64,000 bases of DNA, from NCBI GenBank assembly GCA_977017645.1, contig OZ360230.1, forward strand, positions 1 through 64,000, written 5' to 3'. Both the position numbers and the translations under genes were made by a program. Under the pieces are notes generated by a model. The model saw only the letters and a program-made list of their open reading frames with translations, was not told where the DNA came from and ran no database searches. This document shows, in pieces, positions 2,223 to 2,375 of the stretch; position 1 is the stretch's first letter; each line of letters begins with the position of its first letter. Source of the DNA: Torpedo marmorata. Taxonomy: Eukaryota.

Positions 2223-2375
2223 GTCCCCTGACGAAGCGAGAGGAGTGGCGATTTCCAGCCACAGCGAAACTAGAAGCAACATAGAAATAACCAGAATCTA
2301 GATAGTGCCGTGAAACTAGTGCAGACTAGTTGCAGTGATCGACACTAACTTGAGTGAAGTTATTCTAGTCGGGAC
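2223..2375 (+). ncRNA. Type I hammerhead ribozyme with enlarged stem III
   Basis: Stem I GTCCC(2223-27)/GGGAC(2371-75); core CTGACGA(2228-34); stem II GC/GC plus GTGGC/GCCAC; GAAA(2266-69); stem III CTAGAA/TTCTAG; GTC triplet ending at 2370. Confidence 0.85.

Follow-up and report, generated by a model that had tools for sequence, protein, structure and literature searches.

A hammerhead motif with an enlarged stem III in an ORF1-only Penelope-like element joined to telomeric repeats

In the window, that is, the whole 64,000-nt stretch of Torpedo marmorata DNA analysed here, we found a complete type I hammerhead motif whose stem III encloses an 87-nt loop, upstream of the intact ORF1 of a Penelope-like element (PLE). 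The motif very probably descends from the PLE hammerhead of its family, and we regard it as the family ribozyme rebuilt, because related elements share its position and an extra A in the core. The reading we favour, and judge to be probably right, is that a Neptune-type (SGNH-ORF1) PLE hammerhead was rebuilt in place from a dimer-type to a self-folding form, in which duplications around CTAG would have given a 6–9-bp stem III closing a variable spacer. The motif consists of the following features.

2223–2375, + strand: type I hammerhead ribozyme, copy 1, from the descriptor scan, with predicted cleavage after C2370
8127–8279, + strand: hammerhead copy 2, identical to copy 1 (core 8132, site 8274)
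2228–2235, + strand: core C3–A9 with the extra A that separates positions 9 and 10.1 (descriptor scan; PMC4209133)
2236–2265, + strand: stem II, with a 2-bp base, a 7 × 1 internal loop (2238–2244), a 5-bp distal helix and an 8-nt loop
2216–2221, + strand: 5′ flank of stem I, which would pair with 2238–2243 in the predicted pseudoknot (6 consecutive pairs, 5 of them Watson-Crick)
2270–2368, + strand: stem III with its 87-nt loop (2276–2362), bounded by CTAG palindromes at 2270 and 2365

The core is made up of CUGACGA (2228–2234), the extra A (2235), GAAA (2266–2269), U2369 and C2370, and agrees with the consensus in the accessible text of PMC3088659 at C3 U4 G5 A6 N7 G8 A9, G12 A13 A14 A15.1, U16.1 and H17. 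All three helices adjoin the core and the strands close in stem I (2223–2227/2371–2375, five Watson-Crick pairs), which is the type I topology. The initial annotation had described a complete hammerhead that would be cut about 150 nt before the ORF1 ATG, and the motif and its placement held: the core is intact, the three helices can be paired, and the distance from the predicted cut to the ATG (2523, the first past the site) is 152 nt. A descriptor permitting stem II regions of at most 60 nt and stem III spans of at most 250 nt, run on the two strands of the 64-kb window, matched the 2228 core and its copy at 8132, with no further match in the remaining 50 kb. When the 5.9-kb unit was dinucleotide-shuffled 1000 times and both strands scanned, the same descriptor gave one loose match and no strict one. 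An Rfam search of the stretch returned no hammerhead, a miss that had been named as possible for ordinary motif searches; this blank carries little weight, because 13 related loci with clear minimal hammerheads were likewise unmatched. Such a blank, the wider search space opened by long loops and an ordinary folding energy (z = −1.0; 35 of 200 shuffles as good) would all suit an accidental coming together of short motifs across 150 nt. We consider this extremely improbable, given the rarity among shuffles with equally long loops, the family position, the extra A and the empty remainder of the window.

Among 37 related metagenome loci that were fetched, 17 contain a minimal hammerhead (19 motifs, 10 distinct sequences). 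Every one of the 19 carries G10.1 and the extra A, a nucleotide placed between 9 and 10.1 that is a conserved trait of PLE hammerheads (PMC4209133), and the G10.1–C11.1 pair recurs in the window as G2236–C2265. The entire stem III of the relatives is CG, CCGG or CTAG (CTAG in L022 and L023), so that the short palindromic, dimer-type stem III named earlier as usual for PLE hammerheads was seen in 19/19 motifs; the long form was found in none of the 37 loci. Where measurable, the relatives' hammerheads lie 228–519 nt before ORF1, and the window's lies at 295 nt. Six loci (L001–L005 and L008) have no hammerhead within their contigs. Separately, we noted U3–A8 core covariation in five minimal hammerheads (L016:3407, L019:4970, L020:825, L022:416 and L023:4287). 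A pattern scan of viral contigs gave five matches, none of them confirmed.

Stem III pairs 2270–2275 with 2363–2368 (6 bp) and can be extended across a 2 × 1 loop by 2278–2280/2359–2361. The order in the window is GAAA-CTAG, 91 nt, CTAG-TC, and removal of one CTAG with the spacer restores the L022/L023 form. Three more CTAG copies lie within the insert (2298, 2316 and 2326; P = 0.003), one of which repeats GAAACTAG (P = 0.003), and a near-duplicate of 2271–2280 at 2282–2291 offers the 3′ strand of stem III an inactive pairing register. We infer from these repeats that the insert grew by local duplications around the CTAG palindrome. The inner hairpin (2314–2320/2325–2331) is traceable to a 10-nt tandem duplication of a palindromic hexamer and seems to be absent from a minor variant: as read by eye, a minor contig from run X2 covering 2246–2392 has 10 gaps, and a loose end from run X3 skips from 2320 to sequence resembling 2331 onward. 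It therefore looks like a by-product. Thus, in the earlier picture of a long stem III with an insert and a hairpin, the 6 bp, the extension and the 87-nt loop stand, whereas the hairpin does not hold up as a meaningful, conserved structure. An origin of the insert as a spliceosomal intron whose removal restores the minimal form was rejected, with no GT donor where one is needed (by eye), and an origin as a decayed second ribozyme was unsupported except for one repeated 8-mer (P = 0.003).

Duplication of the palindrome by itself yields four of the six stem III pairs automatically and accounts for the inner hairpin, which lends some credit to an alternative that we consider unlikely, namely that the insertion disabled a minimal dimer-type hammerhead. 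The duplications would then have split a GAAA-CTAG-TC palindrome, leaving the long-range stem III as a side effect, the RNA would misfold, and the element would spread, or have spread, without cleavage. The extra AA/UU and AAC/GUU pairs, together with the 6-bp pseudoknot match described below, go beyond what duplication alone would produce.

The base of stem II consists of two pairs, G2236–C2265 and C2237–G2264, and the distal helix (2245–2249/2258–2262) is predicted with p > 0.99. Stems II of 2 bp are common among hammerheads, and the accessible text of PMC3088659 further reports that pseudoknots using the bases directly after stem II occur in about 40% of hammerheads and are required for fast cleavage. 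The window has the sequence for such a contact, since the bases after stem II can form six pairs with the stem I side, more than the four that define the class. Pairing as good with either 10-nt flank arose by chance in 0.9% and 3% of cases for 10-mers drawn from the unit or the remainder of the window. We think it likely that a 6-bp pseudoknot, formed with the 5′ flank of stem I, braces the 2-bp stem II. ViennaRNA, which does not model pseudoknots, treats 2216–2221/2238–2243 as a nested hairpin (p about 0.97), and in that form it is a rival fold that competes with stem I and sequesters the core.

The predicted folds qualify the motif further. The hammerhead fold proved feasible under constraint (−35.1 kcal/mol); the minimum-energy fold of the stretch is a different one, and in nearest-neighbour calculations, which leave pseudoknots outside the model, the hammerhead lies 5–12 kcal/mol above the ensemble, depending on the flanks. 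In the fold of 2210–2400 the pairing probability of stem I is about 0, and the slipped register at 2282–2291 (p 0.3–0.9) outcompetes the active register of stem III (p 0.07). As isolated duplexes, the active register is the stronger of the two (−6.9 versus −4.6 kcal/mol). We set aside a second possible core, built on the inner GAAA at 2312, whose fold came out about 5 kcal/mol less favourable than the main one. The 2-bp stem II, the possible pseudoknot, these competing folds and the telomeric, non-autonomous context of the carrier were all absent from the initial annotation.

This preference for inactive folds is what a ribozyme disabled by its insertion would show. It would also fit a conditional ribozyme, held off by the slipped register and the 5′ hairpin and cutting only with a protein or between tandem copies, in which case the uncut, capped RNA could serve as the ORF1 mRNA. 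We rate this conditional mode as quite improbable. In its favour are the two built-in alternative folds, the presence of tandem units, the weakness of metazoan PLE hammerheads in vitro (PMC4209133) and a Poseidon element whose hammerhead was cleaved in vitro only with its protein (PMC11167929, accessible text). The same accessible text reports that hammerhead mutants of the Poseidon element inserted unimpaired in vitro, which also suits a loss of cleavage in the window's lineage, and that no RNA-seq ends were seen at its cleavage site. Against a conditional mode, the major contig of one run has an insertion that weakens the slipped register, and the 5′ hairpin is strengthened by alleles at 2222 and 2232 that are private to the window; majority alleles cut the gap between the folds from 8.9 to 5.2 kcal/mol in 2210–2380 and from 12.4 to 8.6 kcal/mol with other flanks, and the gap persists in both. 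The weakened register and the private alleles suggest drift rather than a kept switch. On the favoured reading of a rebuilt, self-folding form, the window hammerhead would cleave as a monomer, and we lean towards this being the case.

We compared the region 2150–2900 with four of seven listed sequencing runs, counting variants present at 5% or more. Contigs of X2, X3 and X4, which bear three organism labels and come from three studies, cover the ribozyme, and X1 has no cover there; the X4 run is guessed to be RNA. The insert was found in contigs of all three covering runs, including one X4 contig that spans 2190–2499. Among the differences listed, those within 2223–2375 are a C-to-U change at N7, the free position and the sole core change, one insert base, and an AA insertion after 2284 that strikes the inactive register and spares the active one; a G>T change at 2222 gives stem I an added wobble. 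No compensatory stem changes were seen among these few differences. In the major contigs of the three runs no change is listed in the core, the stems or the pseudoknot arms, while both bases beside the 5′ arm, 2214 and 2222, vary, which argues against a ribozyme disabled by its insertion. None of 12 variable non-coding sites fell within the 59 constrained positions, a count that agrees with constraint and is not significant (P = 0.12). In addition, a diverged contig end from X3, with 5 of 30 letters changed, keeps stem I, G16.2 and U16.1 and has U, a non-G, at position 17, again contrary to loss of function; among its changes is 2367, on the 3′ side of stem III, with the 5′ partner out of view (all read by eye). 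Separately, a 66-nt deletion (2393–2458) in a minor X2 contig is matched by an X3 loose end and marks a diverged subfamily.

The hammerhead belongs to an element with the following coding features.

2523–4160, + strand: ORF1, 545 aa, intact, with a C-terminal SGNH/GDSL esterase-like domain
8427–10064, + strand: copy of ORF1 in unit 2
4151–4157, + strand: slippery heptamer at the ORF1 end, entering the ORF2 frame
4097–4638, + strand: broken ORF2 relic, its first ~190 residues (tblastn E = 1e-11; profile positions 3–195 of 768)

The last 159 residues of ORF1 have 1155 relatives at E values up to 0.001. PF13472 (GDSL/SGNH) was matched by 10 of 38 aligned ORF1 relatives and not by the window's own domain alone, and the ORF1 alignment matched no solved structure. 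Of the relatives that carry a species name, the closest comes from Scyliorhinus torazame; this protein is 51% identical and groups with the window in a supported clade. Of the ORF1 variants in the other runs, 10 of 22 are synonymous against 22% expected (P = 0.012, with variants treated singly though not independent). The heptamer at the ORF1 end, which we take to be a slippery site from its consensus form, recurs, in frame, at 13 of the 19 related ORF1 ends. In the long related loci ORF1 overlaps an ORF2 of 730–820 aa, and Pfam detected RT in 4/4 and GIY-YIG in 3/4 of the relatives tested. The window element likewise has an esterase ORF1 that overlaps ORF2 at a frameshift site; an RT core and GIY-YIG went undetected in the window, where the ORF2 profile matched at the positions given above. 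The element is therefore non-autonomous, and a dead ORF2 is in keeping with a ribozyme that has also been disabled. When 57 residues were used to look for an autonomous partner with ORF2, a weak search, four candidates emerged, none significant. The Neptune-type label is a provisional one, given by architecture and by the accessible text of PMC5408684 and PMC8557442 rather than by RT phylogeny.

Several further signals lie around ORF1. A GTAAGC resembling a splice donor and a pyrimidine tract with CAG resembling an acceptor stand about 20 nt apart before it (2493–2514), several relatives show acceptor-like tracts ahead of ORF1 (by eye), and a spliced ORF1 mRNA is possible. A weak TATA-like stretch (2186–2193, altered at 2189 in one run) precedes the core by about 40 nt; the TATA boxes of relatives are clearer and lie about 50–115 nt before their cores (by eye). 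Some related ORF1s have an extra domain between the N-terminal region and the esterase (PF08719, precomputed, P0003; L022:1300–1700).

The element occurs in an array (975–13401) of ORF1-only PLE units on telomeric tracts, which is arguably more notable than the ribozyme insert. The following features define its units and junctions.

6315–6829, + strand: 515-bp terminal direct repeat (pseudo-LTR) without a hammerhead, 99.6% identical to 6861–7375 and 99.4% to 12217–12731
6821–6864, + strand: (CCCTAA)n tract joining units 1 and 2, with the element's 3′ junction at an internal AACCTAAC microhomology
5268–5460, + strand: degenerate (CCCTAA)-like internal cluster after the ORF2 relic (46 hexamer matches versus a shuffled mean of 4.4 and maximum of 16)
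12721–13401, + strand: telomeric tract, third element end, and telomeric and variant repeats bordering ordinary genome

The two units (975–6864 and 6880–12768) are 99.86% alike and differ by three single-base indels, each in a one-letter run, and at the junction; they may represent a genuine tandem, or in part a duplication made by the assembly. The third element end (12871–13083) is 5′-truncated and about 93% identical. All three element 3′ ends lie at one internal telomere-like site and pass into (CCCTAA)n with slightly different junction letters, and the 5′ ends likewise border on telomeric repeats. The array finishes at 13401 in variant repeats, and a gap at 202–974 separates it from the window's start and hides whether its position is terminal. 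The same polarity would result if an endonuclease drove insertion into telomeric repeats. Because the 515-bp terminal repeat excludes the ribozyme, each unit has one hammerhead, and because of this a single copy has no dimer partner in cis; the scan found no hammerhead near 6820, 12721 or 13083. Nested in each unit are older, incomplete copies of the terminal repeat and the region upstream (5350–5899 and 6128–6443, 77–91% identical), which suggest earlier rounds of self-insertion. Elsewhere in the window, a degenerate (TTAAAG)n satellite occupies 1–201, before the gap, and ~20 kb of AT-rich higher-order satellite lies at 26300–46650, with units of 58–67 nt and blocks of 0.5–3.2 kb at 80–96% identity.

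Telomere-like hexamer clusters also follow ORF2, by up to 900 nt, in 6 of 12 related loci (L001, L004, L006, L007, L008 and L011; strong in four, modest in L004 and L007), the other six being without them. These clusters are (CCCTAA)-like on the sense strand and belong to endonuclease-bearing elements of one sub-clade. A single supported branch separates the loci with clusters from those without, so that the clustering is among kin and does not represent independent cases.

For a rebuilt, self-folding ribozyme in this setting, we propose that it would most likely act on read-through or tandem transcripts, with a single cut in each unit after C2370. The predicted product is a 5′-OH RNA whose start lies 152 nt ahead of ORF1 and which continues through the telomere-complementary site, at which an RT supplied in trans would start internally; internal initiation of reverse transcription is known for PLEs (PMC11167929, accessible text). 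Being uncapped, such an RNA would more plausibly be a template than an mRNA, so that the initial annotation's proposal of a cut that sets the 5′ end of the ORF1 RNA may not apply to the mRNA.

Compared with the minimal metazoan PLE hammerheads (PMC4209133), the window motif is the same in being type I, in its 9/10.1 nucleotide, G10.1–C11.1 pair and 5-bp helix I, in its place upstream of the PLE coding region and in the palindromic CTAG at 15.2/16.2. It differs in helix III (a 0–2-nt loop there; here 87 nt with a 6–9-bp helix), in helix II (5–8 bp there; here 2 bp plus an internal loop) and in copy number, with one per unit outside the repeat instead of a copy in each terminal repeat. The telomere-associated fungal and protist PLEs (PMC4209133) share telomere association, a large helix III and expected monomeric activity; by text descriptions, loop lengths apart, their hammerheads lack recognisable contacts between helices I and II, whereas a pseudoknot is possible in the window, and the window element differs from them in being an animal one derived from an endonuclease-bearing clade. 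The pseudoknotted hammerheads of Perreault et al. 2011 (PMC3088659), in the text accessible to us, have the same 2-bp stem II and pairing of post-stem II bases with the stem I side; those with 1–2-bp stems II come mostly from bacteria, phages and a vertebrate C10 intron, unlike the PLE hammerhead predicted here. Discontinuous Clec2 hammerheads show that a natural hammerhead can tolerate a large loop insertion and evade short-loop scans, and reside in mammalian 3′ UTRs rather than in a retroelement (PMC2950038, accessible text).

As far as the accessible text of PMC5408684 and PMC8557442 goes, Neptune-like PLEs of fish and molluscs share the SGNH ORF1, the overlapping ORF2 and the frameshift site; the window element differs from them in having lost ORF2 and kept ORF1, with copies joined by telomeric repeats. 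Athena, Terminon and Coprina (accessible text of PMC6431247 and PMC8557442) have the same polar head-to-tail arrays, with 3′ ends on reverse-complement telomeric repeats and 5′ ends capped by telomeric repeats. Their hammerhead lies immediately before the telomere-complementary stretch, whereas that of the window lies 4.4 kb upstream of it, or 1.45 kb downstream in the next unit, and the window element has no RT of its own. Monomeric large-helix-III, pseudoknotted and large-insert hammerheads are thus each already known. In the open literature, whose figures and supplements may list such cases, we did not find all three combined in a Neptune-type element of an animal whose relatives keep the minimal form, nor, outside subscription papers and Repbase, telomere-attached PLEs in vertebrates; a preprint from 2026 about new ribozymes does not, in its accessible text, treat Penelope, sharks or stem III.

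Drosophila HeT-A, a telomere-attaching, ORF1-only retroelement, is a comparable design. We tentatively suggest, as a possibility we would not bet on, that a vertebrate, probably cartilaginous-fish, Neptune-type lineage became telomere-attaching and ORF1-only, that, after the second ribozyme copy was lost, its dimer-type hammerhead became self-sufficient and pseudoknotted in place, and that the wider sub-clade, with its endonuclease-bearing members, bears reverse-complement telomeric repeats and also targets telomeres. If the favoured reading holds, the rebuilt hammerhead would represent a natural route from a dimer-dependent to a monomeric ribozyme within one family, with the ancestor visible in relatives. 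It would also provide a protein-free, single-copy system for PLE hammerhead function, which the accessible text of PMC8557442 and PMC11167929 treats as an open question. The array, for its part, points to telomere-attached Penelope-like elements in vertebrates.
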